Assembly: GCA_965243835.1 (NCBI GenBank)
Contig: OZ251578.1
Span: forward strand, 277,573 to 341,572
Reading direction: 5' to 3'
From: Candidatus Spongiisociaceae bacterium
GTDB taxonomy: Bacteria > Actinomycetota > Acidimicrobiia > Spongiisociales > Spongiisociaceae
Length of the DNA: 64,000 bases
Shown in pieces: positions 12,172 to 57,086 of the stretch (positions are counted from its first letter, which is position 1; each line of letters starts with the position of its first letter). The position numbers were made by a program, and so were the translations under genes. The notes beneath the pieces are model-generated. The model was not told where the DNA came from. It ran no database searches and worked only from the letters and a program-made list of their open reading frames with translations.

Positions 12172-12834
12172 GTGTCTGAAAACCATCTGTCAAATCGGTC
12201 ACGCGTATTCGGCTATGTGGATGGCTACAACGTCTACTACGGATTGCTGAGCAAAGGCTGGAAAAGGTTCTACTGGCTTGATTTACGGGCTTTGTTCACC
12301 ACTCTCTTGCTTCCGGGCGATGAGCTGGTTGCTGTCAAGTATTTCACCGCTAGAGGGCGAGGCCCCCAAGACTCCAACCGTCGCCAAGCTATTTACTTAG
12401 GGGCTCTCTCCTCGTCAGGCGGAGTGGAGATAATCAGCGGCCGGTTCGCCAGGCGGACGCGTAAGCACTGTTCCTACTGCGGGAATTATCTTCAGTGCCT
12501 GAAGTGCGAACGCAGCGACAGGCGGAACCAGGAAAAAACGACCGATGTCGCTATCGGCGTTAATTTGGTTGCGGATGCGCACGAAGGGCTGTACGACAAG
12601 GCCTTTCTGATGACCGGCGACAGCGACCTCATACCGGCGGTCAAGCATGTGGTGGACAGGTTGGGTAAAAGGGTGGTCGTTACCCCGCCGCCCGGACGAA
12701 GATCTGATCACCTGAATGAGGTGGGCTCCGGGGTGGCGTACTTTTCCGTCGGGGCCTTTAGGCGATCCCAGTTGCCGGAAGTGGTGATGGGGAGCGGGGG
12801 GCGGGAGTATCGGCGACCCGCCGCGTGGAGATGA
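12172..12834 (+). CDS. NYN/LabA-like (PIN-fold) nuclease domain protein with central zinc ribbon
   Basis: GTG start with aaggag RBS; FGYVDGYNVYY and TDVAIGVNLVADAHEGLYDKAFLMTGDSDLIPAV (NYN); CSYCGNYLQCLKCE. Confidence 0.7.
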   Translation: MSENHLSNRSRVFGYVDGYNVYYGLLSKGWKRFYWLDLRALFTTLLLPGDELVAVKYFTARGRGPQDSNRRQAIYLGALSSSGGVEIISGRFARRTRKHCSYCGNYLQCLKCERSDRRNQEKTTDVAIGVNLVADAHEGLYDKAFLMTGDSDLIPAVKHVVDRLGKRVVVTPPPGRRSDHLNEVGSGVAYFSVGAFRRSQLPEVVMGSGGREYRRPAAWR

Positions 12835-12844
12835 CGACGCCGGG

Positions 12845-14611
12845 TTACATCCGGTCGGGAATTTCGATGCCCAGCAGGTCCAGCAACAGTTCCAGGGCGC
12901 GGCGGACGACGGCGACCAGGGTAAGCCAAGAGGCCCGCCGGTGCGGGTCGGGTTCGGTGAGGATGTGGCAGGATTCGTAGAAGGAACTGAACCCGGCGGC
13001 CAGTTGGTATGCGTATTCGGCCAGCTGGTTGGGTGCCCGCAACTCCTCCGCCCGTTCCAGGGCTTCCGGCAGGGCCAGCAGATGCAACCACAGGCGCCGT
13101 TCCGGGCCGGCGTCGGGGGCGATGACCGGGCCGGGGGACAGGTCGCGCTCCCCGGCTTTGGCGAGGATGGAGGCCATCCGCACCGCCGCCATCTGCAGGT
13201 AGGGGCCGGTTTTGCCTTCCAGGGAGGTGAACCGTTTCGGTTGGAACACGTAGTTGGAGGTCCGGTTGTTGATCAGGTCCCCGAATTTGAGGGCGGCCAA
13301 GCCCACCTGCCGGGAGATGCGGTCCCGTTCCGCGTCCGGGTAGTCGGCGGCCAGGTCCGATTCGTCCAGTCGCCGGCGGGCTTCTTCGGCCACCAGCCGG
13401 ATCAGATCCTGCAAGGCCAGCACCTCCCCGGCCCGGGTTTTGTAGGGTTTGCCGTCTTTGCCGTTCATCGTCCCGAACGGGATGTGCTCCATCCGGGCGC
13501 GGGGGGCGATGCCGGTGCGCCGGGCGGCCCGGAACACCTGGGTGAAATGGTAGGACTGGCGGGCGTCCACCACGTACAGGATCAGGTCGGCCTCCAGCTC
13601 CTCGACCCGCATCCCAATGGCGGCCAGGTCGGTGGTGGAGTACAGGTAAGCCCCGCGCGAGGTGCGGACGACCAGCGGCGCGATTTCGGTTTTGTCGTCT
13701 TCTTCGGCTACTTCTACGACCACCGCCCCCTCCGACTCGCGGGCGACCCCGGCGGCGAGGGCGCCTTCCACCAGGGGGGCGAGGCGGTCCCGCACATCGC
13801 TTTCCCCATGCCACAAATCGAATTCCACTCCCAGGTCGGCGAAGTCCCGCTTTTGGGAGCGGCGGGAAACGGTCACGAAATGGTTCCACAGGGCTAGGTA
13901 GCCGGGGCGTCCCGCCTGCAGTTCGCCGGTGGCCCGGCGGGCGGCATCGGCGGTTTCCTCGTCGCGCTCGGCTTGGGCGGCGATCTGCGGATACCATTCC
14001 TGCAGGTCGGCCAGCGCGACCGGGGGTTCCTCCGGGTAGGGGCCGGAGCGGTCGGGGTCGAAGTAGGGGAGGTCGGGGAGGCGCCGTTGGGCGGCCACGA
14101 TCAGCATTCCCATCTGCAGGCCCCAGTCCCCGAAGTGGGCGTCCCCCCACACCCGGTGGCCGCGGAACCGGAGCAGGCGCTTCAGGCTGTCGCCGATGAT
14201 GGTGGAGCGCAAATGTCCGACATGCATGGCTTTGGCCACATTGGGCCCGGCGTAATCCACCACGATGTTGAGGGGATTTTCCACCGGCGGCGCCCCCGCC
14301 CGTTGCGGGTCGGCGGCCACCCGGTTCGCATATTCGGCCAAGGCGCGGTCGGTGAGGGAGAGGTTGATGAACCCGGGCCCCGCTACCGAGGCCTCGGCCA
14401 GCCGCGGGTCATCGGCGAGGCGGGCCGCCGCCTGTTCCGCCACCTCCCGGGGATTGCGCCCCCCGGATTTGGCGGCGGGCAGGGCCCCGTTGCATTGGAA
14501 CTGCCCCAAGTCCGGCCGGTTGGACGCCACTACCAACCCGTACCCGGGGTCGAACCCCAAGTCGGCGAAGGCGTTCCCCAGCAGGGCGGAGAGGTCGGAC
14601 AGCACGCTCAT
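12845..14611 (-). CDS. argS: Arginine--tRNA ligase
   Basis: 588 aa; class I aaRS HIGH-like motif (PNVAKAMHVGHLRST) and DALR anticodon-binding C-terminus. Confidence 0.9.
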   Translation of the reverse strand: MSVLSDLSALLGNAFADLGFDPGYGLVVASNRPDLGQFQCNGALPAAKSGGRNPREVAEQAAARLADDPRLAEASVAGPGFINLSLTDRALAEYANRVAADPQRAGAPPVENPLNIVVDYAGPNVAKAMHVGHLRSTIIGDSLKRLLRFRGHRVWGDAHFGDWGLQMGMLIVAAQRRLPDLPYFDPDRSGPYPEEPPVALADLQEWYPQIAAQAERDEETADAARRATGELQAGRPGYLALWNHFVTVSRRSQKRDFADLGVEFDLWHGESDVRDRLAPLVEGALAAGVARESEGAVVVEVAEEDDKTEIAPLVVRTSRGAYLYSTTDLAAIGMRVEELEADLILYVVDARQSYHFTQVFRAARRTGIAPRARMEHIPFGTMNGKDGKPYKTRAGEVLALQDLIRLVAEEARRRLDESDLAADYPDAERDRISRQVGLAALKFGDLINNRTSNYVFQPKRFTSLEGKTGPYLQMAAVRMASILAKAGERDLSPGPVIAPDAGPERRLWLHLLALPEALERAEELRAPNQLAEYAYQLAAGFSSFYESCHILTEPDPHRRASWLTLVAVVRRALELLLDLLGIEIPDRM

Positions 14612-14694
14612 GGCCTCCCAGCCTAAACCACCCGCCCGCCTACCGGGACCGCTATACTTTTAACCCTTGGTAACCGCCCAACAGGAACAGGCAG

Positions 14695-16686
14695 ATGCCG
14701 CTACGTGAAACCCTGGACAACATCCGCAACGGACCCACCCCCGGCAACGAGGAGTCGGCCAAGATGTGGATTCTGGTTCCCATCCTTCAGGATTTGGGTT
14801 GGCAACCGTTTGATATCCAGTGGGAATATCAGGTGGGCCGGAGCAAAGGAAGGGTGGATGCCGCCCTAACTGGGCCAAAGGGAGTTACGGCTTTCATCGA
14901 AGCCAAAGCCCCCGGCAACCGTTTGGACGATCACGTCGAGCAGGTTTTGGGATACGCGTTCCAGGAGGGGGCGAACATCTGCGCGCTGACCACCGGCCTG
15001 GAGTGGTGGTTGTACCTGCCCGCCGAGACGGACTACAACTTCGACGAACGCCGTTTCGCCGAGTTGCGTCTCAAGGACGACCCGGTGGAACAACTGGCCA
15101 CCGATTTCGTCGCCTTCCTAGGCAAGGAAACATTATTAGACGGAGAAGCCGAGAAAAAGGCCAAGCAAGTCCTAAAAGCCCGCCGCGAGGCCGAACACTT
15201 GGACAAGGAGGTCCCCGGCATCTGGCGCGAAATGCTGGTAACCCCCGACGAAGAGCTGATAGAGCTGGTAAGCAAACGCGTCTACGAAAAAACTAACCTC
15301 CGCCCCACCTCTCAACAGGTAAACTTCGCCCTCACAGGCCGCCTTTCCCCACCCTCTACCAGCCCACGACGACCCGTTGACCCCCCAAATAAAGAGATTA
15401 AACCACCAACCAGCACGCCAGGACCTACGGCGATTCGATTGTGGGGAGAGACACAATCAGTTAAAAGCAATGCGGATATTCTTAGATGCGTTATTGATGG
15501 TCTTCTCGAACGAGGTGAGACTGAGTTTGAGAATATACCTGGAATAGGCGGTATCACTCGTACTCCTTATCAGCCCAAAATGAAGGATTATTATCAAGTG
15601 GGCTCCACCGGCATTTACTTTGTTACAGGAAAGGGCAGAGCCGTTATTGAAGATACTTATCGGCTATTAGAACACTTTGATTATACCCGTTCAGATTTAG
15701 AAATTATATATGGCAAGATGCCTCCACCAAATGGTATGAAATTGTGGGGAAAATACTATCAAGTTAAATCTTGGATTAGCATTTTGGATATTGTAGTAGA
15801 TTCTCTCTATGAACGCCATGGACACAATTTTGAACCTGGACTCGAGCTTCGTAATCAAAGAGGACCTTATATTTCTCGGGAATCTTCAGATATAGAAAGG
15901 CCCCGTCAGGTAGGCGCAAAGGATCTCTATTTGGATCGTAACATCGGACATTTGGAGGTTAAAGAACGCGCCAAAGAATTGCTTGAGGCTTTTGGATACA
16001 AAGCTTCTGATCTAGAAATTATAGAGAAAGAAAAAGCAAGCGGCTTTGAGTTCTTGGGTAAATACCATGAGGTGAAGCACAATTATCAAGTGCTGGTTGG
16101 TGTCGCCGAAGTTCTCTTCGAACAGCATGGTAACGATTTTGAAGGGGCCCTTGATTTGAAAGGTATATTACGTAAACCTGAGAGTGTCTCTCCTAAAAAT
16201 TATCGCGAAGTGGGCTCTTCGGGTATTTTTGTGAGATTGCCGGACGCTAAATTTTTTTCTAGGTCTTATCAATTGGTAGAATACTTTGGGTATAAAGCCA
16301 GTGCTTTAAGAATTGATACTACAACAGGTTCAGTAAATTATTCTACATTAGATATATCCAGAAGCAAGAGATATGTAAAGCCGGTTCGTATTAGACTGTT
16401 TGACGAGTACCATAAAGTCAAACTATGGAAAGAGATAATAATGCGGCTTGCGGATGTGCTTTATAGACGGCATCGCTCTGATTTTGATCGTGTGTTGGGT
16501 TTAGGGACTGAAAAGAACCCTTATGCTTCTCGCCTTTCTGTAGTGTTGGAGTCAGCGTATGAAGTTGGTAATTCGGGTATTTATATCGAAACAGGGCTAA
16601 GTTCCGATAATGTCAAAAGGCGCTCCAAGAAATTGTTAGAAGAATTCGGATACAAACCCGAAGAGTTAGAAATACTGTTTGATTAG
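14695..16686 (+). CDS. HsdR_N-like (PD-(D/E)XK) nuclease domain protein with Pro/Thr linker and four tandem copies of a novel ~85-aa module
   Basis: N-terminus EYQVGRSKGRVDAALTG...AFIEAKAPG...ALTTGLEWWLY matches the Type I R-subunit N-terminal fold. Four repeats carry (W/F)G.Y..VK......LY.RH..dFe then Y.VGsSGIY....LLE.FGY...L.I. The repeat region is about 40% GC. Confidence 0.75.
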   Translation: MPLRETLDNIRNGPTPGNEESAKMWILVPILQDLGWQPFDIQWEYQVGRSKGRVDAALTGPKGVTAFIEAKAPGNRLDDHVEQVLGYAFQEGANICALTTGLEWWLYLPAETDYNFDERRFAELRLKDDPVEQLATDFVAFLGKETLLDGEAEKKAKQVLKARREAEHLDKEVPGIWREMLVTPDEELIELVSKRVYEKTNLRPTSQQVNFALTGRLSPPSTSPRRPVDPPNKEIKPPTSTPGPTAIRLWGETQSVKSNADILRCVIDGLLERGETEFENIPGIGGITRTPYQPKMKDYYQVGSTGIYFVTGKGRAVIEDTYRLLEHFDYTRSDLEIIYGKMPPPNGMKLWGKYYQVKSWISILDIVVDSLYERHGHNFEPGLELRNQRGPYISRESSDIERPRQVGAKDLYLDRNIGHLEVKERAKELLEAFGYKASDLEIIEKEKASGFEFLGKYHEVKHNYQVLVGVAEVLFEQHGNDFEGALDLKGILRKPESVSPKNYREVGSSGIFVRLPDAKFFSRSYQLVEYFGYKASALRIDTTTGSVNYSTLDISRSKRYVKPVRIRLFDEYHKVKLWKEIIMRLADVLYRRHRSDFDRVLGLGTEKNPYASRLSVVLESAYEVGNSGIYIETGLSSDNVKRRSKKLLEEFGYKPEELEILFD

Positions 16687-16701: not shown

Positions 16702-18960
16702 ATGTCTGGCTTGATTGACGTTAAATTGATAGACGGTACGGCGCGTACTATACGTGAGCTGTTTACCGGGCGTAAGTACGGGATAGAGTACTACCAGCGT
16801 GAATACACTTGGACGGAGTCCAATGTGGTGGAGTTGCTTGATGACCTAACCACTCGTTTTCTGGATGAATATACGGAAGGCGATGAGCGTCATAAGGTCG
16901 CCTCTTACCGTTATTATTTCCTGGGACCAATAGTTACCAACCTATCCGAAGAAGGGATACGTTACTTGGTGGATGGACAGCAACGCCTTACTACCCTAAC
17001 CTTATTGTTGATTTGTCTAGATCATATGTCTAAAGATGAGGATGGGGTGGAAAGTTTGGAACAGTTAGTTTATTCGCAAAAGTTCGGTTCACGCACATTT
17101 AACATAAACGTAGACGAGCGTGAAGAAGTGATGGCTACTATTCTGGATGGTTCTTCCTCTTTTGATACGGAGGACAAGTCGATATCGGTTCGCAATATAT
17201 GGGAGAGATATCAGAATGTAGTGGATCATTTTCCTGAAGAACTCAAAGGAGAATCATTAGTGTTTTTTATTGATTGGTTACTGGAACGGGTGGTACTAGT
17301 CGAGATAGGCACCACCGACCAGGATATGGCATTAGAGGTTTTTGAAACAATGAACGACCGGGGTTTGCGTTTATCCAATACCGATATGTTGAAAGCTTTT
17401 CTACTGAGCAAACTTGACGACCGTCAGCGAATTGAAAAGACGAACGAGCTATGGCGTAATCGTATAACGGAGCTGGCAGATTTAGATAAGAATGCTGACT
17501 CGGATTTTCTGAAGCATTGGTTACGCGGGCATTACGCCGATTCAATCCGGGAACAGAAACGGGGTGCTACTCCACGCGACTTCGATATAATTGGTACCGC
17601 GTATCATAAATGGGTGCGCGATAATTGTGAAAGAATAGGGTTGTATAATTCTAGTGATTTCATGGGTTTTGCCTATCAAGACTTTGACCGAATGAGCAAT
17701 AGATACAAGCAACTTCTGCAGGCTAGCTGGGAAATGACCCCTGGTTTGGAGCACTTATTTTACAACGCCACAGTGGGAATAACACTCCAATACTTGCCTA
17801 TTATAGCGGCTTTAACTCCCGATGATGATGAAGAAATTTTTCGATCAAAAACTCGTCTTATATCTGCTTATATTGACTTGTGGATGGCGAGGCTTATGGT
17901 TAACTATCGTAACTATGGATATTCAACTATTTTACATAGAATGTTTCGATTGAGTAAAGAACTCCGTAATCGAGAATTGCATGAAGTTCAAGAAATATTG
18001 GCGAATTGGGTAGCTGGCTTACCAGATTCCTTTGAGGGCGTTATGCATTTTCGGCTTCACGGTCAGAATCGTTGGCGCATTAAATACTTGTTGTCACGGA
18101 TGACAGCTTGGGTTGAGGCGAATTGCGACGGTAGCGGTCAGTTTGTTGATTATATGGATTCACAACGCCAAAGCCCTTATGAGGTGGAACATATTTGGGC
18201 TAATAAATACGCTCGACATATAGATGAGTTTGACAGCCCGGATGACTTCGATCGTAGTAGAAATCGTTTTGGTGCTTTAGTGCTTTTACCGAAGAGTTTC
18301 AACGCCAGCTATGGTGATAAGCCTTATTCAGAAAAGGTAGAACATTATTACGGTCAGAATTTATTGGCACGGTCGCTTCACCCTAGAACCTACGAGAATA
18401 ATCCTTCTTTTAAAGGATTTATAGCGAAGACAGGGTTGCCTTTTAAACCTTATCCCGATTCTTTTACAAAGGATAATATAGAAGAGAGACAGGATTTGTA
18501 TCGTCAGATTTGTGAGCAGATTTGGGATCCGGACACCTTGGGTTTGGGCGGAGGCGCATCACAATCAATCCCTAAAAGTACTAACCCTAAAATGACTAAA
18601 AGAAATATGTCTACATATGACATTTTGGGATTGGAGTTGTTTGGTGAATATTATCAGGCGGAACATAAATACCCAAAATACCAAGTACTACAAATTGTTG
18701 CTGATGAAGTCTACAAGAGGCACCGTGATGATTTTCATCGGGCGTTGGAGATCGGCGGCTTTGTAAGTGAGCCTTCTCCTCAAAACCCTGATGAATATTA
18801 TAAGATAGGGTCATCGGGAGTATATGTTCTTGCCGCCTCGGGGCTTTTTGATAAGTCGTATAAACTATTGGACCTTTTTGGTTACCAACGGGGGGCTCTT
18901 AGAATTGACACTTCGGAAGGGCCCATCAACCCTTCAACTTATGAGGTGGATGATGAGTAG
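16702..18960 (+). CDS. DUF262/DUF1524 (GmrSD/BrxU-like) Type IV restriction-type protein with one C-terminal copy of the shared module
   Basis: DUF262 hallmark YLVDGQQRLTTLTLLL; DUF1524 His-Me motif YEVEHIWANKYARH; C-terminal LGLELFGEYYQAEHKYPKYQVLQIVADEVYKRHRDDF...YYKIGSSGVYVL...LLDLFGYQRGALRI; RBS gaaaggaagg 7 nt upstream. Confidence 0.8.
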   Translation: MSGLIDVKLIDGTARTIRELFTGRKYGIEYYQREYTWTESNVVELLDDLTTRFLDEYTEGDERHKVASYRYYFLGPIVTNLSEEGIRYLVDGQQRLTTLTLLLICLDHMSKDEDGVESLEQLVYSQKFGSRTFNINVDEREEVMATILDGSSSFDTEDKSISVRNIWERYQNVVDHFPEELKGESLVFFIDWLLERVVLVEIGTTDQDMALEVFETMNDRGLRLSNTDMLKAFLLSKLDDRQRIEKTNELWRNRITELADLDKNADSDFLKHWLRGHYADSIREQKRGATPRDFDIIGTAYHKWVRDNCERIGLYNSSDFMGFAYQDFDRMSNRYKQLLQASWEMTPGLEHLFYNATVGITLQYLPIIAALTPDDDEEIFRSKTRLISAYIDLWMARLMVNYRNYGYSTILHRMFRLSKELRNRELHEVQEILANWVAGLPDSFEGVMHFRLHGQNRWRIKYLLSRMTAWVEANCDGSGQFVDYMDSQRQSPYEVEHIWANKYARHIDEFDSPDDFDRSRNRFGALVLLPKSFNASYGDKPYSEKVEHYYGQNLLARSLHPRTYENNPSFKGFIAKTGLPFKPYPDSFTKDNIEERQDLYRQICEQIWDPDTLGLGGGASQSIPKSTNPKMTKRNMSTYDILGLELFGEYYQAEHKYPKYQVLQIVADEVYKRHRDDFHRALEIGGFVSEPSPQNPDEYYKIGSSGVYVLAASGLFDKSYKLLDLFGYQRGALRIDTSEGPINPSTYEVDDE

Positions 18961-20626
18961 TTTTTTGGTTAAGGGGCCGGCTCAACTGAGCGGGCACTTT
19001 CAGCCGGTGGGGAACAAGAATGCGGCCCTGCCGATTATCGCCGCCTGTTTGCTGGCGGAGGGGCCGGTTACTTTGCGCAACGTGCCGATGATCGGGGATG
19101 TGGAGTCGCTACTGGCCATCCTGGAGGAAATGGGGGCCGCGGTGGACCGCCGGGGAGGGGGAACCATCCGCATCGACGCCCGCAATGTGGACTCGCCTGC
19201 GGTTTCGGCGGAGCTGGCGGGGGCGATTCGGGCCTCCATCCTGCTCGCCGGACCACTCTTGGCCCGGTTCGGGCAGGTGACAATTCCGCCTCCCGGCGGG
19301 GACGTCATCGGGCGTCGTCGCATCGACACGCATGTGCGGGGGCTGACCGCCATCGGCGCCCGCTACAAATACGAGGGCGGGCATTCTTTCACCGCCGACT
19401 CCCTCACCGGCGCCGACGTGTTCTTGGACGAGCCGTCGGTCACCGCCACCGAAAACCTGATAATGGCCGCTTCCAAAGCATGGGGCACCACCGTCATCCA
19501 GAACGCCGCCTGCGAACCGCACATCCAGGACCTGTGTCATTTCCTGAACTCGCTGGGGGCGCGCATCACCGGCATCGGCAGCAACATTCTCACCATCGAG
19601 GGGGCGGATTCGCTGAGCGGCGGCGAGCACGACATCGTTCCCGACCATATTGAGATCGGAAGCATGATCGTGTTGGCCGCCGTAACCGGTTCCGAAATAA
19701 CCATCGGCGGGATACGCTCCGGTGAGATCAGGCCCATCAACCTGGCTTGGCAACGGCTGGGCATCGATTACCACCTGCAAGCGGACGGCTCCGCCCTGGT
19801 CTGCGCCCATCAGAACCTCACCGTGTCCCCCGACTTGGGCGGCGCGGTGCCCAAAATAGAGGACGGGCCGTGGCCGTCCTTCCCGGCCGACCTGACCAGC
19901 ATCGCGGTGGTGGCCGCCACCCAGGCCACCGGTTCCATAATGATCCACGAGAAAATGTTCGAGTCGCGAATGTTCTTCGTGGACCGGCTGATCGGGATGG
20001 GGGCCCGCATCGTGCTGTGCGACCCGCACCGGGTGATGGTGCTCGGCCCCACCCCCTTGCATGCCAGCCCGGTGGCCAGCCCCGACATCCGGGCCGGGAT
20101 GGCCCTGCTCATCGCCGCCCTGGCCGCCGAAGGCCAAAGTCGCATCGATAACGTGGAACAGATCGAACGGGGCTACGAAGCCCTCGACAGCCGACTCACC
20201 GCCCTAGGAGCCCAAATCGAACGCCTCGACGGGTTGGAAAGCACCAGATCGGCGGTAGCCAAAAAACCGAAAACCAGGAAACGTTCCCAAACCCCTCCTC
20301 CTGCGGGTCTGCAAATACTAGGCCGCGAATTGCAACCGACGTCTTGGGCGGATGCAGTCCGGGAGACTGTTCGAGAGATGCTCGCCCGCCACCCCGATAT
20401 TTACCAGGAGACTATGTTGGGCCTCCCACGGTGGATTGATAGTAGTGGCGATAGCCGTCTCGCCTATCCGCTAGAATCCAGGCCGCCACACAGATACGGC
20501 ACAGTTATCGGCGGAGTAAGAGTATTTGATAATTACAACGCAATAGGAGCGAAAGAGGCTGTTGACATTGTTTTAAACGGATTTGGCTACCAAGCCGACG
20601 CCGTTCGCGAATGGACTTTGACATAG
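18950..20626 (+). CDS. murA: UDP-N-acetylglucosamine 1-carboxyvinyltransferase (MurA) homolog with ~130-aa C-terminal extension carrying the shared module
   Basis: [40 protein letters not shown] and a full two-lobe MurA/EPSPS core. Asp replaces the catalytic Cys ([15 protein letters not shown]). Tail ...[30 protein letters not shown]...[12 protein letters not shown]...[17 protein letters not shown]. The ATG overlaps the upstream gene by 11 nt. Confidence 0.85.
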
Positions 20627-20638
20627 GGGCCCCGCTGG

Positions 20639-20700
20639 GGTACAGTTTTTGTGAATGCTCCCCGCCGTCTGGGGCCAACCTGGACTGGCGGGGCTTATTT
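20639..20700. repeat. X1 repeat: hairpin gctccccgcc...ggcggggc with T-rich tail, directly after the murA stop
   Basis: A second copy (X2) lies at 20897-20960; could act as the murA terminator. Confidence 0.55.
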
Positions 20701-20721
20701 ATGGATAGGTGATATCCGATG

Positions 20722-20815: not shown

Positions 20816-20896
20816 CCTCCGCCTAAGTGCTCACCCTGTGGCGGAGCCGCGCGAAGCCGTTCGTCAATAGACGATTTGACAGGGGGTCCCGGTGGT

Positions 20897-20960
20897 GTAT
20901 AGTTTCTGTTAATGCTCCCCGCTGTCCGGGTCCTTGGGGCCTGAACTGGCGGGGATTTAG
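20897..20960. repeat. X2 repeat (second copy of the X1 hairpin element)
   Basis: gtatagtttctgttaatgctccccgctgtccgggtccttggggcctgaactggcggggattt. Confidence 0.55.
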
Positions 20961-21137: not shown

Positions 21138-21950
21138 TTACAGGTTGGGAGGGACGGTAGTCATTTTATTCAAGGTTTCCTTGTCTAAATCGATAATGTT
21201 ATCCGCTAGTTTAGAAAGCTCACGGGACACACTATTCCGGTTGGGAGTAGCAACCGATACTCGAGTTCCCATATTTTGGGCGACACGTACAGCCTCCGTA
21301 AAGTCCCCATCTCCCGCAATGAGCACCGCCTTATCAATCTTTCCTTGTTGCGCCAACATCACCAAATCCAACACTAGCAAGGTATCCACTCCTTTCTGTT
21401 TGTGTTCTGGCTCGAAAGCCCCATTTTTTTCTAACTCGTTTATGAATTGAATTGGATCCTGCCCTAAATCGGACACCATTTTATTGAGGGTAGCTCTTAG
21501 ATCGCGTTCGTTTTTAGGTCTTATTTCAACTATACGTCCCAGTCGGAGTTCAAAGTCAGGGATCTGCACTAATTCAGACAGGATTTTTCGTTGAAATTTT
21601 GCTGATTTGTGGTAAGCGGGATAAGCACCATCATACCAATAGGTTTTATGAAGGTGTCCTTCGATGCCTCTGCACCAATCTGCAATCTCTTTGGTATTCA
21701 TTTGTATTCGCGTTTTGGGTATTGAATTACCGGAGAAATTTTTGCCTTCCGCTCGTAAATATCCAACATCTATAAAAACGGCATAACGAGAAGATGGTTC
21801 GTTTTGTTCGGCTGTCGTTGTGTTTTCTAGGAGTTTGAAAAAATACGTCTTGGTTTCGCCGATTTTTGCTCGTCTTTCGAGCTTGAGTGTTTCTTCTGGG
21901 TTGTCGGCGATGTCATAGTTTCCTGTATTTATTTTATTGTTTTCTTTCAT
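21138..21950 (-). CDS. NYN/LabA-like (PIN-fold) nuclease domain protein
   Basis: RYAVFIDVGYL...GVDTLLVLDLVMLAQQGKIDKAVLIAGDGDFTEAVRVAQNMGTRVSVA. Start chosen at MKENNK because of the gggagaag RBS; the ORF is open up to 22148. AT-rich. Confidence 0.65.
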   Translation of the reverse strand: MKENNKINTGNYDIADNPEETLKLERRAKIGETKTYFFKLLENTTTAEQNEPSSRYAVFIDVGYLRAEGKNFSGNSIPKTRIQMNTKEIADWCRGIEGHLHKTYWYDGAYPAYHKSAKFQRKILSELVQIPDFELRLGRIVEIRPKNERDLRATLNKMVSDLGQDPIQFINELEKNGAFEPEHKQKGVDTLLVLDLVMLAQQGKIDKAVLIAGDGDFTEAVRVAQNMGTRVSVATPNRNSVSRELSKLADNIIDLDKETLNKMTTVPPNL

Positions 21951-22231
21951 TTTTCTTTCTTCTCCCGTATCGGGTGGATTCCGCTTGTGTGCGGGTATCC
22001 CTTGTAATTTACCTAAAGGGGGGTAAGTTTCGGCTTTGTAAAATATTTCTAGGTGTTTGACAAAAAATCCCATAGGAAGCCCCAACGATGTCCCATAGGG
22101 GACCGTTGCTACCCCCTCTAGGGAAATCCAGTTTAGGGCAACGCCCAATATTTGTCAAACGGGCATCTACCTGGGCTTTTGCCAGGGGCAGGAGCGGGGT
22201 TCGTTGGACGGCGGCCCGTTCAGGGGGACGG

Positions 22232-23086
22232 TTATAGGTGGGGGGCTACCAGGGAGTTGTAGCGTTCTGTCATTTTTTTCAGGACCTGGGGGCCGGGTTG
22301 GTTCCAGATTTCCCGGTTGAAGATTTCCACTTCCACCGGGCCGGTGTAGCCGGCGGCGGCTACCGCTTGGGTGAAGCGGGCGAAATCGATCACGCCGTCG
22401 CCCATCATTCCCCGGCCTAGCAGCACATCGGGCAACGGGTCCAGCCAGTCGCATACCTGGTAGGAAAAAATCCTCCGTCCCGCCCGGTCGATCTGCTCCC
22501 ATGCCTGCGGGTCCCACCACATATTGAAAGTATCCACCGTTACCCCCACCGTCTCCTCGGGAAAGCCTTCGGCTATGTCCAGCGCTTGCCGCAGGGAAAC
22601 GATCACCGACCGGTCGGCGCAGAACATGGGGTGCAATGGTTCGATCGCCAGCCGCACCCCCGCCTCCCTCGCCGTTGGGACCACCGCCGCGATCCCCTCC
22701 TCCACCTGCCGTCGGGAAGCCTCCAAACCCGCCCCCTTGACCCCTCCGCACACCAGCACTATCACTTCGCACCCCACGGCCGCCGACTCCTCCACCACTC
22801 GCCGGTTCTCCTCCACCGCCCGCCGCCGACCGTCGGCGGAGTCGGCGGTGAAAAACCCTCCCCGGCAGTAGGTGGACACCCGCAGGCCGGCCTCCCGCAC
22901 CATGCGCCCCGCCGCCTCCGCACCGCCCGCGGCCCGCACCTGCTCCCGCCACAAGCCGATCCATCCGATGCTGGCCCGCACGCACCCGGCCGCCGCCTCC
23001 TCTACGCTCCAGTATTCGGTGGTTTTCTGGTTGAGGCTGAGCCGGCCCCCCCGGCCATCCCGCCCCGACCGTTCCGGCCCGGGCAT
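22232..23086 (-). CDS. Sugar phosphate isomerase/epimerase (xylose isomerase-like TIM barrel)
   Basis: AGVRLAIEPLH...TVGVTVDTFNMWWD; the start overlaps the upstream stop (ATGA). Confidence 0.75.
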   Translation of the reverse strand: MPGPERSGRDGRGGRLSLNQKTTEYWSVEEAAAGCVRASIGWIGLWREQVRAAGGAEAAGRMVREAGLRVSTYCRGGFFTADSADGRRRAVEENRRVVEESAAVGCEVIVLVCGGVKGAGLEASRRQVEEGIAAVVPTAREAGVRLAIEPLHPMFCADRSVIVSLRQALDIAEGFPEETVGVTVDTFNMWWDPQAWEQIDRAGRRIFSYQVCDWLDPLPDVLLGRGMMGDGVIDFARFTQAVAAAGYTGPVEVEIFNREIWNQPGPQVLKKMTERYNSLVAPHL

Positions 23087-41917: not shown

Positions 41918-42001
41918 GCCGGGATGCCCGAGCGGCCAAAGGGAGCAGACTGTAAATCTGCCGGCTAAGCCTACGGAGGTTCGAATCCTTCTCCCGGCAC
42001 C
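41918..42001 (+). tRNA. tRNA-Tyr (GTA)
   Basis: Acceptor gccggga/tcccggc, anticodon loop actgtaaatc, long variable arm, TPsiC ggttcgaatcc. Confidence 0.8.
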
Positions 42002-42049
42002 GACCAGAACCGGACCGAACCCGGAACTGGTATCCTGACAAGACCCATC

Positions 42050-42123
42050 GCCCCCTTAGCTCAGTTGGCCAGAGCGCCTCCATGGTAAGGAGGAGGTCTC
42101 CGGTTCGAATCCGGAAGGGGGCT
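42050..42123 (+). tRNA. tRNA-Thr (GGT)
   Basis: Acceptor gccccct/agggggc, anticodon loop atggtaa. Confidence 0.8.
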
Positions 42124-42144
42124 CGACGGCCTTGGGCCGCAGGC

Positions 42145-42218
42145 GGCGGCGTAGCTCAGTCGGTAAGAGCGCTCGACTCATAATCGAGAGGTCGGCAGTT
42201 CAAGTCTGCCCGCCGCTA
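42145..42218 (+). tRNA. tRNA-Met (CAT), elongator type (could be tRNA-Ile2/lysidine)
   Basis: D arm gctcagtcggtaagagc, anticodon loop ctcataa, T arm ggcagttcaagtctgcc; anticodon stem lacks the initiator 3xGC signature. Confidence 0.7.
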
Positions 42219-42297
42219 CAATCAACCCGAATCAACCCGACCAACCCGTAAAACACCCGGTCAACCGGACCGCAAAGACGCAAAGGAGGAGCAAACG

Positions 42298-45801: not shown

Positions 45802-45877
45802 AGGGGCGTAGCTCGAAATTGGTTAGAGCGCCGGTCTCCAAAACCGGAGGTTGGGGGTTCGAGTCCCTCCGCCCCTG
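45802..45877 (+). tRNA. tRNA-Trp (CCA)
   Basis: Acceptor aggggcg/cgcccct, anticodon loop ctccaaa. Confidence 0.85.
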
Positions 45878-45907
45878 CCCCGCTAAAACACCCGACAGGA
45901 AGAAAAA

Positions 45908-51713: not shown

Positions 51714-51800
51714 GCGCTCATCCAGAGCGGTGGAGGGACAGGCCCTGCGAAACCGCGGCAACCGTATGACCGGTGCCAATGCCTGAACGATGAGATAAGC
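51714..51800 (+). promoter_or_regulatory. SAM-I (S-box) riboswitch aptamer
   Basis: ctcatccagagcggtggagggacaggccctgcgaaaccgcggcaaccgtatgaccggtgccaatgcctgaacgatgag matches the S-box consensus (P1 ctcatc/gatgag, GGTGGAGGGAC, GGCAACC, GGTGCCAAT). Confidence 0.7.
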
Positions 51801-54107: not shown

Positions 54108-57086
54108 ATGATGGCCCAGGCGGGAGCGAGGACGGCGGAGATGGCCGGCAGGGTTATCTCCGGGCAAGCCGAGGACGACATCAGAGCCGCCCTGCGCAAC
54201 CTGTTAGAAGAGATGGGCGCCGCACGCGCCGCGCAACTTTCGTTCGCCGGCGGCGATGAAGCGGATATGGTGATTGAGGAGTGGTCCGTCGTCATCGAGA
54301 CCAAAAGCAAGGGCATTAGCGACTTCTCGGCTCCGGGTAGCGGAAGCCGCGTCGGGGAAACCGCTTTTGATCAACTGGGCCGTTATCATGGTCATTTGGA
54401 TGGCCTTCCCGAATACACGCAACAAAAGGGTAGTTGGCTAGGTGTTATTACCAACGGCAGACGGTGGTCGACGCGGATCTGGTCGGATCAGGGCGCGGTG
54501 GAGCTGGCAAGCGATCGGGAGTTTCTGCCGGGAAACGAAGCCGCCTTGATAGAATGGTTGTCTAACTTGTTGATAGAAAGGCGAAAGTATCAACCTTTCC
54601 CATCGGATCCGGGTGAAGTATTTAATCCTTTTGCCAACGAACTTTTGATGATGACCCAGACGGACTGGCCTAATTCTCAAAAGAAATCCTATGCTACGCA
54701 AAAGGATTTGTGGCTGGAAATACTTGAAGGATCAGGTATGGGGGTAGTTACCGACGAGGAAGCTTTGTTTCGCCGTCATTGTTTTCTAGTATCGCTAGCG
54801 CGAGCGGTGGAAGCGTCTATGGAGAAGGACCCTCCCCCTGTTCTTGATTCAAATAGGATGGTGGGATTTTCATCTTGGGTGGCAGAAACGAATGATGGTA
54901 GAGAGTGGTTGGATAAAATGTACAAACAAGTGCTTTCTTATGATTGGCAGAATACAGGTCGTGACGCTTTACGTGAAGTGTATGAAACAACCGTAGACAA
55001 AAGAAACCGGCACGCGTTTGGAGAATACTATACCCCTGGTTGGGTGGCGGCTATGGTGGTAGAGCGGGTATTGGATGATGACTGGCTCAGCCGCTGTTTA
55101 ACGGCCGGTGAGAGCCCTCAGCCCGGCTACGGTGTTCTGGATCCCGCTTGTGGTTCCGGCACCTTTTTGTATCATGCGGCCAAAAGAATATACTCTTATT
55201 TGAACACCGCACCGGACGCATCCCGGCTACTGGATGTACAGAAGGCGGATATTGTGGCTAATCTGGTTGTGGGAATAGATATTCATCCGGTTGCAGTGGA
55301 GTTGGCGAAGATTACGTTGCTCACGGCCTTTCCGCCCGGGGTTTCACCTCGCAGGGGAAAAGACGCCCTGAGGGTTTTCCAAGGGGATGCGTTGCTGGCT
55401 GATTGGCAGACGCATGCCCTGTTTCGTAATCCCGAGTTGGAAGGCGAATTATATGAGTTTGAATCACCTCAAGGAAGAGAATATTTTATACCTCGCTTTT
55501 TTGCCCTCCGGCCTGAATTTGGGCAACAGATTAAGACGATGTTGGATGCTGTTATTCGCGGCGATCATCTTCCCCGGCATTTGTTGGAAGGTGACGAAAG
55601 TTTGGATCAGTTGTTATTGGAAAGTTATGATACTCTAAAAACTCTCGTACAAGTAGAGCAAAATGGGGTTTGGGCGTGGCGTATTTTCAATTCCGTATCT
55701 CCGCTACTGCTCTCCTTAACCAAGGTAGATAGAATTGTGGCTAACCCACCGTGGGTGGTAATGTCTTCTATACAAGATCGCCGGAAAAGGGTTTGCGAAA
55801 GCCTGCTTAAAGATCATCAACTTTGGCCTGGAAAGAATTTGGCCGCTAAAACCAATCTGGCGGCTCTTTTCGTATTCCGTACGGCAGTCGAATATTTACA
55901 CTATAAACGAAAAGGAAATTTCGCCTGCGGTTGGGTACTTCCCTGGGGATCTTTGCAAGGTGAAAACTGGGGGTTTTTGCGAGAGAAGATTAGTCCCGAA
56001 ACACTAGATTTGGGCGATGTCAAACAGCCTCCTTTTACTGGTGATGTGTCCTGTGTTTGGTTTGAAGGATCTGCTATAACCGATGATAAATTAAATAAGA
56101 TAGCTAATAACGTTTCCGGCCAAATTGTGTCGCGCGATGCCGACGATTGGAGTTTAGCCCAAACCAGACTCAGAATTTCAACAGCTGAAATACCCCGCCA
56201 AGAAACTTCCGGCTACTACGACGGGAAAAAATCATTGTTTAGGCAAGGTGCCTCCCTTGTACCTCATACCCTGGTCAAGATACAAGAATCTCGGACGTCG
56301 CCATCCGGAAACGACCGTTTGTTAATTACAACGGCCGCCAGCGTAAAAGGTGTCTGGGCCAATATCTCTCCTCATAAAGACCAAGAGATTCCAAAAAGAT
56401 GGTCCAAGGAAACCGCGGGGGGAGAACACCTGCTTCCCTTCGTATTAAGGATGCCCTTTGATAGATTCGTCATCCCTGTTAACTCTACGGGGAAGAATCT
56501 AATGTCGGAATCAGCATCATTGCAAGAAGAATATTGGTGGAACGCCAACAAGGATTATTCCGAAAATGCGGGGGGCGGACAGAGCACTCCTAGAACTTTA
56601 TATTCCCAAATAGATCATCATCAAAAATTGTCTTCTCAATTATCAAGGAAAGATGGTTGGGTAGTAACCTACAATAAATCTGGTTCTAGATTAAGGTCCG
56701 CCCGTACTAATAAACGCCGTTTAATACTTATGGATCAGCTTTATTGGTATACGTGCGACTCCGAGGAGGAGTCTGGATACCTGGTTAGTTTGATGAACTC
56801 TGATTACCTACAGGTACATTTTAGATACGCAAAAACCTCCTGGCGTGATTTTCATACCAACCCCTGGAAAAAGGTGCCGATACCAAAGTACGACCCTGGC
56901 GACGCTACTCACCGAAAACTGGCGAATCTGTGTTTGGATGCCGAAAGTATCGCCATGGGATTTCTCCGGAGTAGCACCGCCCGGGGCTTGGGGCAGCCGG
57001 CAACTTCCAAATTGATAAGAGCCGAGATCGTCGAAAACGGCCTGATGGCGGCAATAGACAACCAGGTCGAAAAAATAATTCCCTAA
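54108..57086 (+). CDS. Type IIG/IIL-like fused restriction endonuclease - N6-adenine DNA methyltransferase (MmeI-like architecture)
   Basis: N-terminal HsdR_N/Mrr-like PD-(D/E)XK (GGDEADMVIEEWSVVIETKSKG...GVITNGRRWSTRIW). MTase motif X EYYTPGWV, motif I VLDPACGSGTFLY, motif IV IVANPPWV. Long C-terminal putative specificity region. About 45% GC after a GC-rich first 300 nt. Confidence 0.7.
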   Translation: MMAQAGARTAEMAGRVISGQAEDDIRAALRNLLEEMGAARAAQLSFAGGDEADMVIEEWSVVIETKSKGISDFSAPGSGSRVGETAFDQLGRYHGHLDGLPEYTQQKGSWLGVITNGRRWSTRIWSDQGAVELASDREFLPGNEAALIEWLSNLLIERRKYQPFPSDPGEVFNPFANELLMMTQTDWPNSQKKSYATQKDLWLEILEGSGMGVVTDEEALFRRHCFLVSLARAVEASMEKDPPPVLDSNRMVGFSSWVAETNDGREWLDKMYKQVLSYDWQNTGRDALREVYETTVDKRNRHAFGEYYTPGWVAAMVVERVLDDDWLSRCLTAGESPQPGYGVLDPACGSGTFLYHAAKRIYSYLNTAPDASRLLDVQKADIVANLVVGIDIHPVAVELAKITLLTAFPPGVSPRRGKDALRVFQGDALLADWQTHALFRNPELEGELYEFESPQGREYFIPRFFALRPEFGQQIKTMLDAVIRGDHLPRHLLEGDESLDQLLLESYDTLKTLVQVEQNGVWAWRIFNSVSPLLLSLTKVDRIVANPPWVVMSSIQDRRKRVCESLLKDHQLWPGKNLAAKTNLAALFVFRTAVEYLHYKRKGNFACGWVLPWGSLQGENWGFLREKISPETLDLGDVKQPPFTGDVSCVWFEGSAITDDKLNKIANNVSGQIVSRDADDWSLAQTRLRISTAEIPRQETSGYYDGKKSLFRQGASLVPHTLVKIQESRTSPSGNDRLLITTAASVKGVWANISPHKDQEIPKRWSKETAGGEHLLPFVLRMPFDRFVIPVNSTGKNLMSESASLQEEYWWNANKDYSENAGGGQSTPRTLYSQIDHHQKLSSQLSRKDGWVVTYNKSGSRLRSARTNKRRLILMDQLYWYTCDSEEESGYLVSLMNSDYLQVHFRYAKTSWRDFHTNPWKKVPIPKYDPGDATHRKLANLCLDAESIAMGFLRSSTARGLGQPATSKLIRAEIVENGLMAAIDNQVEKIIP

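Follow-up and report, generated by a model that had tools for sequence, protein, structure and literature searches.

Genomic context of murA

We analysed a 64-kb stretch of DNA (the window) from an Acidimicrobiia sponge symbiont (Ca. Spongiisociaceae). It contains one copy of murA, which encodes UDP-N-acetylglucosamine 1-carboxyvinyltransferase, a textbook essential enzyme and antibiotic target. The gene follows two nuclease genes in the same orientation, and these start divergently from argS (Table 1).

Table 1. Features of the argS-murA region, in window coordinates
Feature	Position	Strand	Remarks
argS (arginyl-tRNA synthetase)	12845..14611	-	Pfam tRNA-synt_1d, DALR_1, Arg_tRNA_synt_N; conserved left flank, divergent from array; syntenic in all relatives
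argS/ORF1 divergent intergenic region	14612..14694	.	same position as argS/murA intergenic region of empty-site L013; putative array promoter
ORF1, 663 aa	14695..16686	+	N-terminal PD-(D/E)xK nuclease, HSDR_N type (weak match), then four tandem SeqA-C-like repeats
GmrSD-family Type IV restriction enzyme, 752 aa	16702..18960	+	one C-terminal SeqA-C-like domain at 18613-18921
Shine-Dalgarno-like GAGGTGG for murA	18943..18949	+	within last codons of GmrSD, 4-10 nt before murA start
murA ORF	18950-20626	+	alternative first ATG 18950; likeliest start 18953, stop 20626
MurA catalytic core	18953..20227	+	aa 1-425 from second ATG; TIGR01072, PDB matches, AF2 model, dN/dS
Basic, Pro-rich disordered linker	20228..20299	+	low pLDDT, retained positive charge
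Divergent SeqA-C-like domain of MurA	20300..20626 (stop codon included)	+	aa 450-557
GC-rich hairpin, then U-rich stretch	20646..20705	+	directly after murA stop; probable operon terminator

The repeats of ORF1 (at ~15415-16683) score ~131 bits each, and the gene is equivalent to two genes of L004/L006 that have been joined in frame (gene 1 of L004 plus the repeats of gene 2). The GmrSD protein combines GmrSD_N (DUF262, PF03235, E 8e-32) and GmrSD_C (DUF1524, His-Me finger, PF07510, E 2e-9) in a single chain, shows a DGQQR motif in its translation and carries a SeqA-C-like repeat of 125.7 bits. With PADLOC, this gene was labelled HEC-06, Orf5 and mREase_IV, and no match was returned for MurA or ORF1. 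No Rfam family was found in or near the locus.

We found the order argS, array, murA and AP_endonuc_2-DUF993-GFO_IDH-ABC in L001-L007, L091 and L092, and the order argS, array and murA also in relatives of 70% identity (L008, L011, L012 and L014). L013 is an empty site, where argS and murA are ~100 nt apart with nothing in between. The argS/murA/AP-endonuclease frame is common to all Ca. Spongiisociaceae relatives, L013 included. On the right flank of the window, the frame at 22167-22985 (-) has no Pfam match, and from synteny with L006 we infer an AP_endonuc_2 homologue on this flank.

In nearly every relative, the slot between argS and murA is filled by a variable nuclease array that is oriented as murA. 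The last gene of the array is always murA, usually overlapping the preceding stop codon. Across the family, the arrays contain HSDR_N-type PD-(D/E)xK proteins with one to four SeqA-C-like domains, with or without a GmrSD, which itself may or may not have such a domain. The GmrSD tail is missing in L007, L002 and L010, and its presence or absence comes down to an indel of ~390 nt. Comparison of the loci indicates a remodelling of the array in which SeqA-C-like cassettes are gained, lost and fused in frame.

The two upstream genes share with reader-plus-nuclease Type IV enzymes (GmrSD/HEC-06) the pattern of a nuclease domain joined to one or several putative modified-DNA readers. What sets them apart is a SeqA-C-like reader that is arranged in tandem, with up to four copies here and up to six in the wider family. 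Among reader-plus-nuclease enzymes, the DpnI/HhiV4I type of m6A-dependent winged-helix fusion endonuclease serves as a comparison (PMC11037411), and Iyer, Zhang and Aravind drew attention to fusions of SeqA domains in R-M contexts (PMC4738411). The array nucleases are predicted to be modification-dependent and belong to a large uncharacterised family, whose members are candidate methyl-adenine-dependent Type IV enzymes. The host has a type IIG-like N6-adenine methyltransferase. GATC has an observed/expected ratio of 0.83; the statistics for GATC and other palindromes are uninformative.

The junction of GmrSD and murA

Bases 18950-18960 read ATGATGAGTAG; the GmrSD ORF (16702-18960) ends here with TAG at 18958-18960. 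A first-pass annotation, made from the DNA letters, had placed the ATG of murA inside the last codons of the upstream gene. The overlap holds, but the start is more likely the second ATG (18953), which is preferred based on the homologues and the MurA N-terminal consensus MxxFxVxGP, giving an overlap of 8 nt with the GmrSD stop (ATGAGTAG overlap). The GAGGTGG motif is also present in L007, whose GmrSD ends earlier. A start/stop overlap with a Shine-Dalgarno sequence inside the upstream gene is the layout of a coupled pair, and it also occurs in L004-L006. Overlap and Shine-Dalgarno sequence together suggest translational coupling of GmrSD and murA.

The preceding gene overlaps murA by 1 nt or 8 nt in L002, L010 and L004-L006, and there is a gap before murA of 59 nt in L001/L003 and of 35 nt in L008. 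Because of these gaps, and because promoter-like matches are present inside GmrSD, murA may keep its own promoter. The hairpin behind murA has a fold energy of -39.5 kcal/mol (z -2.7) and is conserved in L004-L006. It lies within a unit of ~105 nt that is repeated at 20852-20957 with 76.6% identity.

The MurA core is that of a housekeeping enzyme

The murA product matches PF00275 in Pfam over residues 7-412 (E 8e-64). It reaches 462.8 bits with the murA equivalog TIGR01072, above the curated NCBIfam cut-off of 392.7 and over model positions 1-416 of 416, and 479.5 with NF006873 (cut-off 297). MurA structures of the PDB match across residues 2-425 (E 1e-85), the alignment with 6q0a shows the same PGGD loop, and the AF2 model of the core is confident. 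In an alignment of 53 homologues that includes the window protein, Lys22 and PGGD117 are invariant, with Asp replacing Cys115 of E. coli. The invariant stretches are N21-K22-N23 and P114-G115-G116-D117..G120-R121-R122-R123, the latter in the Cys/Asp115 loop (PGG[CD]xIGxR). An Asp at the Cys115 position is typical of MurA from Actinomycetota.

The core has a GC content of 0.65 (GC3 0.82) and a dN/dS of 0.03-0.14, i.e. it is under strong constraint, and its DNA identity among relatives tracks the identity of the flanks. The full-length, GC-rich and host-like core described in the first-pass annotation is thus confirmed by both family models and composition. By all these sequence measures, the gene is an ordinary, vertically inherited housekeeping murA with an intact enzyme core. 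It resembles the Asp-type TIGR01072 enzymes of Actinomycetota (e.g. MurA of M. tuberculosis) in being a full-length two-domain enzyme with Lys22 and with Asp at the Cys115 position. It differs from them in closing a restriction-enzyme array and in carrying a C-terminal linker and domain of ~132 aa, otherwise absent among the top 120 homologues.

The MurA tail is related to the C-terminal domain of SeqA

The closest MurA homologues fall into two length classes, 556-561 aa and 426 aa, and the difference between them corresponds to ~132 extra residues in the window MurA. To our knowledge, extra domains almost never occur on MurA. The extension of ~130 aa and intermediate GC that had been reported for this protein was found again: the tail has a GC content of 0.535 (GC3 0.51), which lies between those of GmrSD (0.43) and the MurA core (0.65). 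It consists of a basic disordered linker and a domain of ~108 aa. Linker residues 428-446 have a pLDDT <50, and the linker evolves with a dN/dS of 0.3-0.8, or is saturated; its sequence is not conserved, yet all eight variants have a linker net charge between +3 and +6. The pI of the domain is in the acidic to neutral range (5.3-8.7), compared to a family median of 9.0.

Between MurA residues 421 and 558, neither PF03925 (SeqA) nor any other Pfam family is matched at E <= 0.1, and the whole protein matches PF00275 only. In BLASTP and with an HMM of five sequences, the MurA tail had a marginal similarity of 4 bits to the tails of the nucleases. The homology to the tails of the two nuclease genes, which the first-pass annotation had claimed, shows only when profiles are compared. 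With hhalign, eight MurA tails aligned to 22 local repeats with a probability of 92.4% (E 5e-7, 95 columns) and to 145 unrelated family representatives with 96.7% (E 4e-10). The SeqA-C-like family has 748 representatives, in which the domain is nearly always C-terminal and present in one to six copies. PF03925 is matched by 41 of 120 family members (best E 1.4e-17), whose N-termini are mostly nucleases, and the family profile matches solved SeqA chains with E 6e-6 to 2e-4. By this transitive route, the MurA tail is related to SeqA at the profile level, and it can be assigned to the SeqA-C fold. According to these profile comparisons, the MurA tail and the nuclease repeats belong to a family related to the C-terminal hemimethylated-DNA-binding domain of SeqA (PF03925), an affiliation that the first-pass annotation had missed.

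The SeqA C-terminal domain binds hemimethylated GATC. Guarne et al. are said to have found in 2002 that SeqA of E. coli contacts DNA through Arg116/Thr117/Arg118 and Asn150/Asn152. The MurA tails have G-D-S-R at the first of these sites, invariant across tails: the equivalents of Gly115 and Arg118 are kept and the Arg116 position is Asp. The Asn150 equivalent is N in five of the eight tails and the Asn152 equivalent in six, and most tails keep N-x-N at 150-152. Apart from these residues and the family-level sequence relation, which make up its likeness to the SeqA domain (PDB 1LRR, 3FMT, 3SK7), the tail differs from SeqA: it comes without the N-terminal oligomerisation domain, is acidic, has Asp for Arg116 and is attached to a metabolic enzyme. 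The SLED domain of Scml2 (PDB 2MEM) differs in being a domain of a eukaryotic Polycomb protein. Because of the low pI, the invariant Asp at Arg116, the variable Asn150/Asn152 positions and the missing direct Pfam match to SeqA, DNA binding by the tail is doubtful.

When a profile is built from nothing but the MurA tails, its matches to the family are weak (21 bits at best), which makes the tail a family outlier. A recent duplication of a neighbouring tail was rejected because of these weak matches. We found no MurA-type tail in IMG/VR and no other context for this tail type in JGI metagenome contigs or IMG/VR. One JGI contig (n=1) gave a match that we regard as spurious: on translation it had an NGFGYDAD-like motif alone in common with the tail, its frame was broken by stop codons, and the opposite strand offered a more convincing ORF.

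Distribution of the tail and selection

The first-pass annotation had proposed to compare the murA loci of relatives. In our comparison, the extension is confined to relatives with a core identity of at least 94%; tail-less relatives have a core identity of 90.6% or less. At the protein level, homologues of 556-561 aa have identities of 87-98% and those of 426 aa identities of 91% or less. The fusion was recovered from different samples and by different assemblers, in seven or more protein clusters.

The tail evolves with a dN/dS of 0.09-0.26 at a dS of 0.3-1.5, and none of the eight variants has a premature stop codon. From these substitution patterns, we conclude that the tail is held by purifying selection. 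Synonymous sites have diverged 2-5 times as much in the tail as in the core; the history of the tail may thus differ from that of the core, for instance by recombination, instead of going back to a single ancestral gain.

We also considered whether a tailed GmrSD goes with a tailed MurA. This correlation is contradicted by L007, which has a tailed MurA and a tail-less GmrSD; the MurA tail is thus independent of the GmrSD tail. Furthermore, HSDR_N-SeqA-C nucleases are also present in L001, L003 and L010, where MurA has no tail. As tail-less relatives have the same kinds of nucleases, the tail is not required for the existence of the array.

Origin and role of the tail

Taken as a whole, the locus is probably best explained as a housekeeping murA that closes a variable nuclease array and has acquired a SeqA-C-like cassette as a nuclease-free binding module. 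The gene would be transcribed from the array promoter and translationally coupled to GmrSD. In the relatives with at least 94% core identity, a cassette of basic disordered linker and very divergent SeqA-C-like domain has been added after the last codons of murA. This cassette may be the linker and reader part of what was once a nuclease gene, joined to murA in a deletion-type fusion like the one behind the four-repeat ORF1. The tail could then serve as a nucleic-acid or nucleoid-binding module without a nuclease, with the abundant and constitutively made MurA as its carrier, and might tie MurA functionally to the neighbouring Type IV enzymes while leaving its chemistry unchanged.

The first-pass annotation had suggested that an island integrated into the 3' end of a housekeeping murA and rewired its expression and its C-terminus. 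The rewiring survives broadly, in modified form. The site of integration does not, as the array lies upstream, between the divergent argS/murA promoter region and murA. Island and tail are also not one event: the array is old, family-wide and variable, whereas the tail is a separate gain found in the relatives of at least 94% core identity only.

An unlikely alternative is that the locus, which is prone to recombination, once made an in-frame fusion by accident and that the tail is its nearly neutral leftover, functionless by itself and tolerated at the free C-terminus of MurA. The constraint would then reflect the need to fold and to spare an essential enzyme from degradation. The narrow distribution agrees with this, as do the in-frame cassette fusions and indels that the locus is shown to make, the degenerate putative DNA-contact positions of an acidic outlier domain, and the tail-less relatives that do well beside the same neighbours. 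However, a useless tail could be dropped at no cost by one stop codon, and yet the ORF is complete in all eight variants, with the low dN/dS kept up at a dS of up to >1 and the positive charge of the linker retained despite the turnover of its sequence.

Somewhat less likely than such a leftover is a working reader of modified DNA or of the nucleoid that moved from a nuclease to an essential cell-wall enzyme. It might be a competitor or immunity factor stoichiometrically coupled to the Type IV enzymes, or it might sequester or regulate MurA depending on how the chromosome is methylated or replicated, in the manner of SeqA at oriC. Unlike the reader-plus-nuclease Type IV enzymes, the MurA fusion has no nuclease.

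A narrower version, in which the nuclease-free reader protects self DNA or tunes the SeqA-C nucleases by competing for sites or by binding the nucleases, is slightly less plausible again. Coupling of the murA start to the GmrSD stop could set a fixed ratio between the two, similar to an immunity protein or antitoxin. The tail and the nuclease readers share a fold family, purifying selection acts on the tail, and proteins of ~100 aa that consist of this domain alone exist in the family, although they may be fragments. In addition, self DNA may be marked by m6A, given the N6-adenine methyltransferase of the host. In L007, however, the MurA tail is paired with a tail-less GmrSD, and the HSDR_N-SeqA-C nucleases of L001, L003 and L010 stand beside a tail-less MurA. 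A shared specificity is unlikely since the tail differs so strongly from the copies on the nucleases, and SeqA-C domains are not known to bind one another.

We consider it very improbable that the gene is a second, system-dedicated MurA paralogue of a defence island, i.e. a decoy or guard against phage MurA inhibitors or an enolpyruvyl transferase for another substrate; a second copy as decoy, sensor or altered transferase had been the other suggestion of the first-pass annotation. The tight linkage and the start/stop overlap with a Type IV enzyme would fit, as would the unusual domain fusion. Against it stand the equivalog-level score, the intact catalytic residues and the constraint on the core, as well as the chromosomal position, which is conserved in a frame that reaches down to 70% identity and includes L013 with murA alone beside argS. 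Furthermore, GC and GC3 match the host, divergence tracks the flanks, PADLOC has no such component, and a genome scan with peptide patterns of close relatives, which is blind to distant paralogues, found one locus per relative genome.

Lastly, an artefact of assembly (a chimeric junction) or of gene calling (an overlooked stop codon) can be dismissed with near certainty: all data are metagenome-derived, but seven or more clusters, which come from different samples and two assembly sources (ENA, Logan), have the tailed ORF without interruption, with codon-level substitutions patterned as in translated sequence.

Implications

Judged by homology and substitution patterns, MurA is fused at this locus to a SeqA-like domain that probably stems from the pool of reader domains of the neighbouring restriction enzymes, an unusual fusion that is kept under selection. 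Its narrow distribution limits the weight of this finding. Provided that DNA or the nucleases are ligands of the tail, the fusion would be a natural example of a defence module recruited onto a housekeeping enzyme or, alternatively, of how a defence locus can anchor itself to a gene that is essential. Should the tail indeed act as a reader, peptidoglycan synthesis would be linked to DNA-modification sensing or restriction in a way that was not known before. The tail aside, the locus is a clear family-wide defence hotspot between an essential gene and its presumed promoter.

Identity and start of the murA gene

A complete MurA is encoded at the end of the array, i.e. the nuclease genes between argS and murA, which here comprise ORF1 and a GmrSD gene. 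In the 558-aa product starting at 18950, PF00275 matches residues 7-412 (E 8e-64), the equivalog model TIGR01072 (murA; NCBIfam) is covered over its whole length and scores 462.8 bits, above its cut-off of 392.7, and alignments to solved MurA structures span residues 2-427, with E values of about 1e-85 to 1e-78. A 53-sequence alignment shows no variation at Lys22 or in the PGGD117-x-IGRRR loop. The position of E. coli Cys115 is occupied by Asp, as is usual in Actinomycetota. The full-length MurA described in the first-pass annotation is thus borne out.

That annotation also placed the murA ATG within the last codons of a DUF262/DUF1524 gene of Type IV restriction, and both points hold. The upstream gene encodes a GmrSD-family enzyme (GmrSD_N E 8e-32, GmrSD_C E 2e-9; PADLOC labels HEC-06, Orf5 and mREase_IV), whose TAG stop (18958-18960) lies in the murA start region (bases 18950-18960, ATGATGAGTAG). 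The genes as called in relatives, like the N-terminal consensus MxxFxVxGP, point to the second ATG, at 18953, as the probable start, so that the two genes would overlap by 8 nt. GAGGTGG is found 4-10 nt 5' of the murA start, and the murA Shine-Dalgarno (SD) sequence sits within GmrSD.

Features of the window
Feature	Position	Strand	Content
NYN-domain ORF	12172-12834	+	further NYN-domain ORF adjoining argS; ordinary
ORF1	14695-16686		four tandem repeats of about 100 aa
GmrSD gene	16702-18960		one C-terminal repeat
murA ORF	18824-20626		MurA with tail
Repeat unit, copy 1	20596-20700		last ~30 nt of murA-tail coding, sigma-70-like promoter, GC-rich hairpin, then U-rich stretch
Promoter, copy 1	20618-20646		near-consensus sigma-70-like, TTGACA-17-TACAGT
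Repeat unit, copy 2	20852-20957
Promoter, copy 2	20876-20903		near-consensus sigma-70-like, TTGACA-16-TATAGT
NYN ORF	21138-22148	-	336 aa, low GC; C-terminal NYN, Pfam E 1e-13; PADLOC NYN and HEC-09
tRNA cluster and riboswitch	41918-42219, 45802-45879, 51715-51796		Tyr, Thr, Met, plus Trp; SAM riboswitch; ordinary
Second low-GC island	54108-57086	+	992-aa protein; N6_Mtase, MmeI_Mtase and Eco57I matches

A housekeeping murA and an accessory array

We compared the window with the murA loci of relatives (handles L001-L014, L091 and L092). The closest named genomes are MAGs of sponge symbionts from Ca. Spongiisociaceae (Acidimicrobiia, Actinomycetota). Every relative in the genus-level group of the window (L001-L007, L010, L091, L092) shares a common frame of argS (-), a variable array (+) and murA (+), and the right flank consists of AP_endonuc_2, DUF993, GFO_IDH and an ABC transporter, all (-). 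At about 70% MurA identity (L008, L009, L011, L012, L014), the order of argS, HSDR_N-SeqA-C genes and murA is retained, with an extra Fic gene in the array of L008. L013 (CBDCOH010000002.1, 7900-8004) is an empty site, where argS adjoins murA: about 100 nt separate the two divergent genes, and nuclease genes are missing. The sequence before the L013 murA has no obvious SD, and GGAGGTG or GGGAG precedes murA in array-bearing relatives.

The DNA identity of the MurA core, i.e. the enzyme part, follows that of the flanks (e.g. in L001, 85.8% for the core vs 80-82% for the flanks). Furthermore, core dN/dS is 0.03-0.14, core GC3 is host-like at 0.82 (array GC 40-43%), and the 64-kb window contains a single murA. 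Synteny, the empty site, core and flank identity, dN/dS, GC3 and the single copy in the window together say that this is, as judged from sequence, a vertically inherited housekeeping murA, and that the array was inserted, as an accessory element, between murA and the argS/murA promoter region. A dedicated paralogue, such as the second copy (decoy or sensor) proposed previously, is poorly supported in view of the equivalog score, the conserved frame, the empty site and the core tracking its flanks. The other earlier proposal, that the island rewired murA, stands in that a housekeeping gene appears to have been altered by the island; however, the island lies upstream and is old, and the tail, i.e. 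the C-terminal extension, would be a separate SeqA-like gain.

Array content differs among almost all relatives, with one or two HSDR_N proteins that carry 1-4 SeqA-C repeats. GmrSD is missing in L001 and L003, lacks a tail in L002, L007 and L010, and carries one in the window, L004-L006 and L091; this tail is a discrete indel of ~390 nt, with the murA SD and start kept on either side. ORF1 of the window (663 aa; one nuclease domain) corresponds to gene 1 of L004 plus, in frame, the two repeats of its gene 2 (L004 5040-7755): a 777-nt deletion took out the gene 1 stop together with the nuclease domain encoded by gene 2. At the level of sequence, this comparison is direct evidence of repeat-mediated cassette shuffling at the locus.

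The MurA tail as a SeqA-C-like domain

The nearest MurA homologues form two length classes: seven clusters have 556-561 aa (87-98% identity), whereas all the others, including one at 91% identity, have about 426 aa. An artefactual fusion, to be set beside these seven clusters, is poorly supported. The extra ~132 residues consist of a basic Pro-rich linker and a domain of ~108 aa. In the full-length AF2 model the linker comes out as disordered (pLDDT <50, residues 428-446), and it keeps a net charge of +3 to +6 in every variant despite sequence turnover.

The repeats of ORF1 and GmrSD each reach about 126-132 bits against a local HMM; the alignment of this HMM with the MurA tail runs end to end but scores only 4 bits. 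Profile-profile comparison settles the homology of the ~130-aa extension to both nuclease tails, as claimed at first pass: the tail matches the 22 local repeats with 92.4% probability (E 5e-7) and 145 independent family representatives with 96.7% (E 4e-10). The idea that the tail is a recent copy of a neighbour was rejected, as a profile of the eight tails gave no family member above 21 bits.

With the six copies from the window as query, a full HMMER scan across 1.84 billion representative proteins (E <= 1e-3) yielded 748 proteins, in which the domain is nearly always C-terminal and present in 1-6 copies (family-wide, proteins P0122-P0270 and loci L008-L014); a 1147-aa member carries six. Nuclease domains of the HSDR_N, Mrr, HNH or GmrSD type predominate as N-terminal partners. 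Among 120 of these proteins scanned with Pfam, PF03925, the C-terminal domain of SeqA, was present in 41 (best E 1.4e-17), N-terminal HSDR_N in 45 and HSDR_N_2 in 28, with Mrr_cat, HNH, GmrSD_N, RmuC, HEPN and others being rarer. A family profile of 58 sequences matches solved SeqA chains (E 6e-6 to 2e-4). The tails of MurA, ORF1 and GmrSD are thus SeqA-C-like domains. In SeqA, this fold reads hemimethylated GATC. Fusions that involve SeqA domains are already on record from R-M contexts (PMC4738411). The family members are candidate methyl-adenine-dependent Type IV restriction enzymes.

When aligned to SeqA, whose contact roles we take to be those of Guarne et al. 2002, the MurA tail retains Gly115 and Arg118, shows Asp without exception at position 116 and carries N-x-N at positions 150-152 in most alleles, not all. 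The tail domain ranges from acidic to neutral, compared with a median pI of 9.0 across the family. With such mixed contact residues and charge, DNA binding by the MurA tail is plausible but uncertain.

History of the tail and of the downstream region

Core identity to the window is at least 94% among tailed MurAs and at most 90.6% among tail-less ones, and this separation is compatible with a single gain. No other context for a MurA-type tail was found in JGI metagenomes or IMG/VR. Tail dN/dS is 0.09-0.26 (dS 0.3-1.5), truncated alleles were not found, and the linker is far less constrained than the domain; these estimates show purifying selection on the tail. Tail dS is 2-5x core dS, which may result from weak codon bias (GC3 0.51) or from recombination.

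In tail-less relatives murA directly abuts AP_endonuc_2, and the space 3' of tailed murA is variable. The NYN ORF of the window lies between the murA tail and AP_endonuc_2 and is missing from L004-L007, L004-L006 have a small ORF, and L091 has two successive ORFs of 83 and 133 aa, the latter with a weak PIN match; the two possibly form a toxin-antitoxin pair. This region is therefore a second variable slot. A ~105-nt unit is present there in duplicate (76.6% identity). Copy 1, with a strong hairpin 3' of the murA stop (-39.5 kcal/mol), is kept in L004-L006 and not in L007; the unit could act as the operon terminator, encode a small RNA or be the scar of a recombination event.

Proposed mechanism and implications

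As the last gene of the array, murA has a conserved position and usually overlaps the previous stop. We infer that the array promoter would drive murA, with coupling to GmrSD. A deletion-type event may have created the tail by fusing murA to the linker-plus-reader part of what was once a nuclease gene. The tail would serve as a nuclease-free binding module with MurA as its carrier, rather than modify MurA chemistry. Among the rival explanations, the tail might be a neutral remnant, or it might have an immunity or competitor role.

The fusion of MurA to a SeqA-like domain, an architecture of narrow distribution, appears not to have been described before; our literature search found no description of a MurA fusion of this kind. 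Lastly, domain matches mark the 992-aa protein of the second low-GC island as a restriction-modification fusion that is type IIG/IIL-like, so that m6A marks may be present on host DNA; this possibility bears on the SeqA-like readers.
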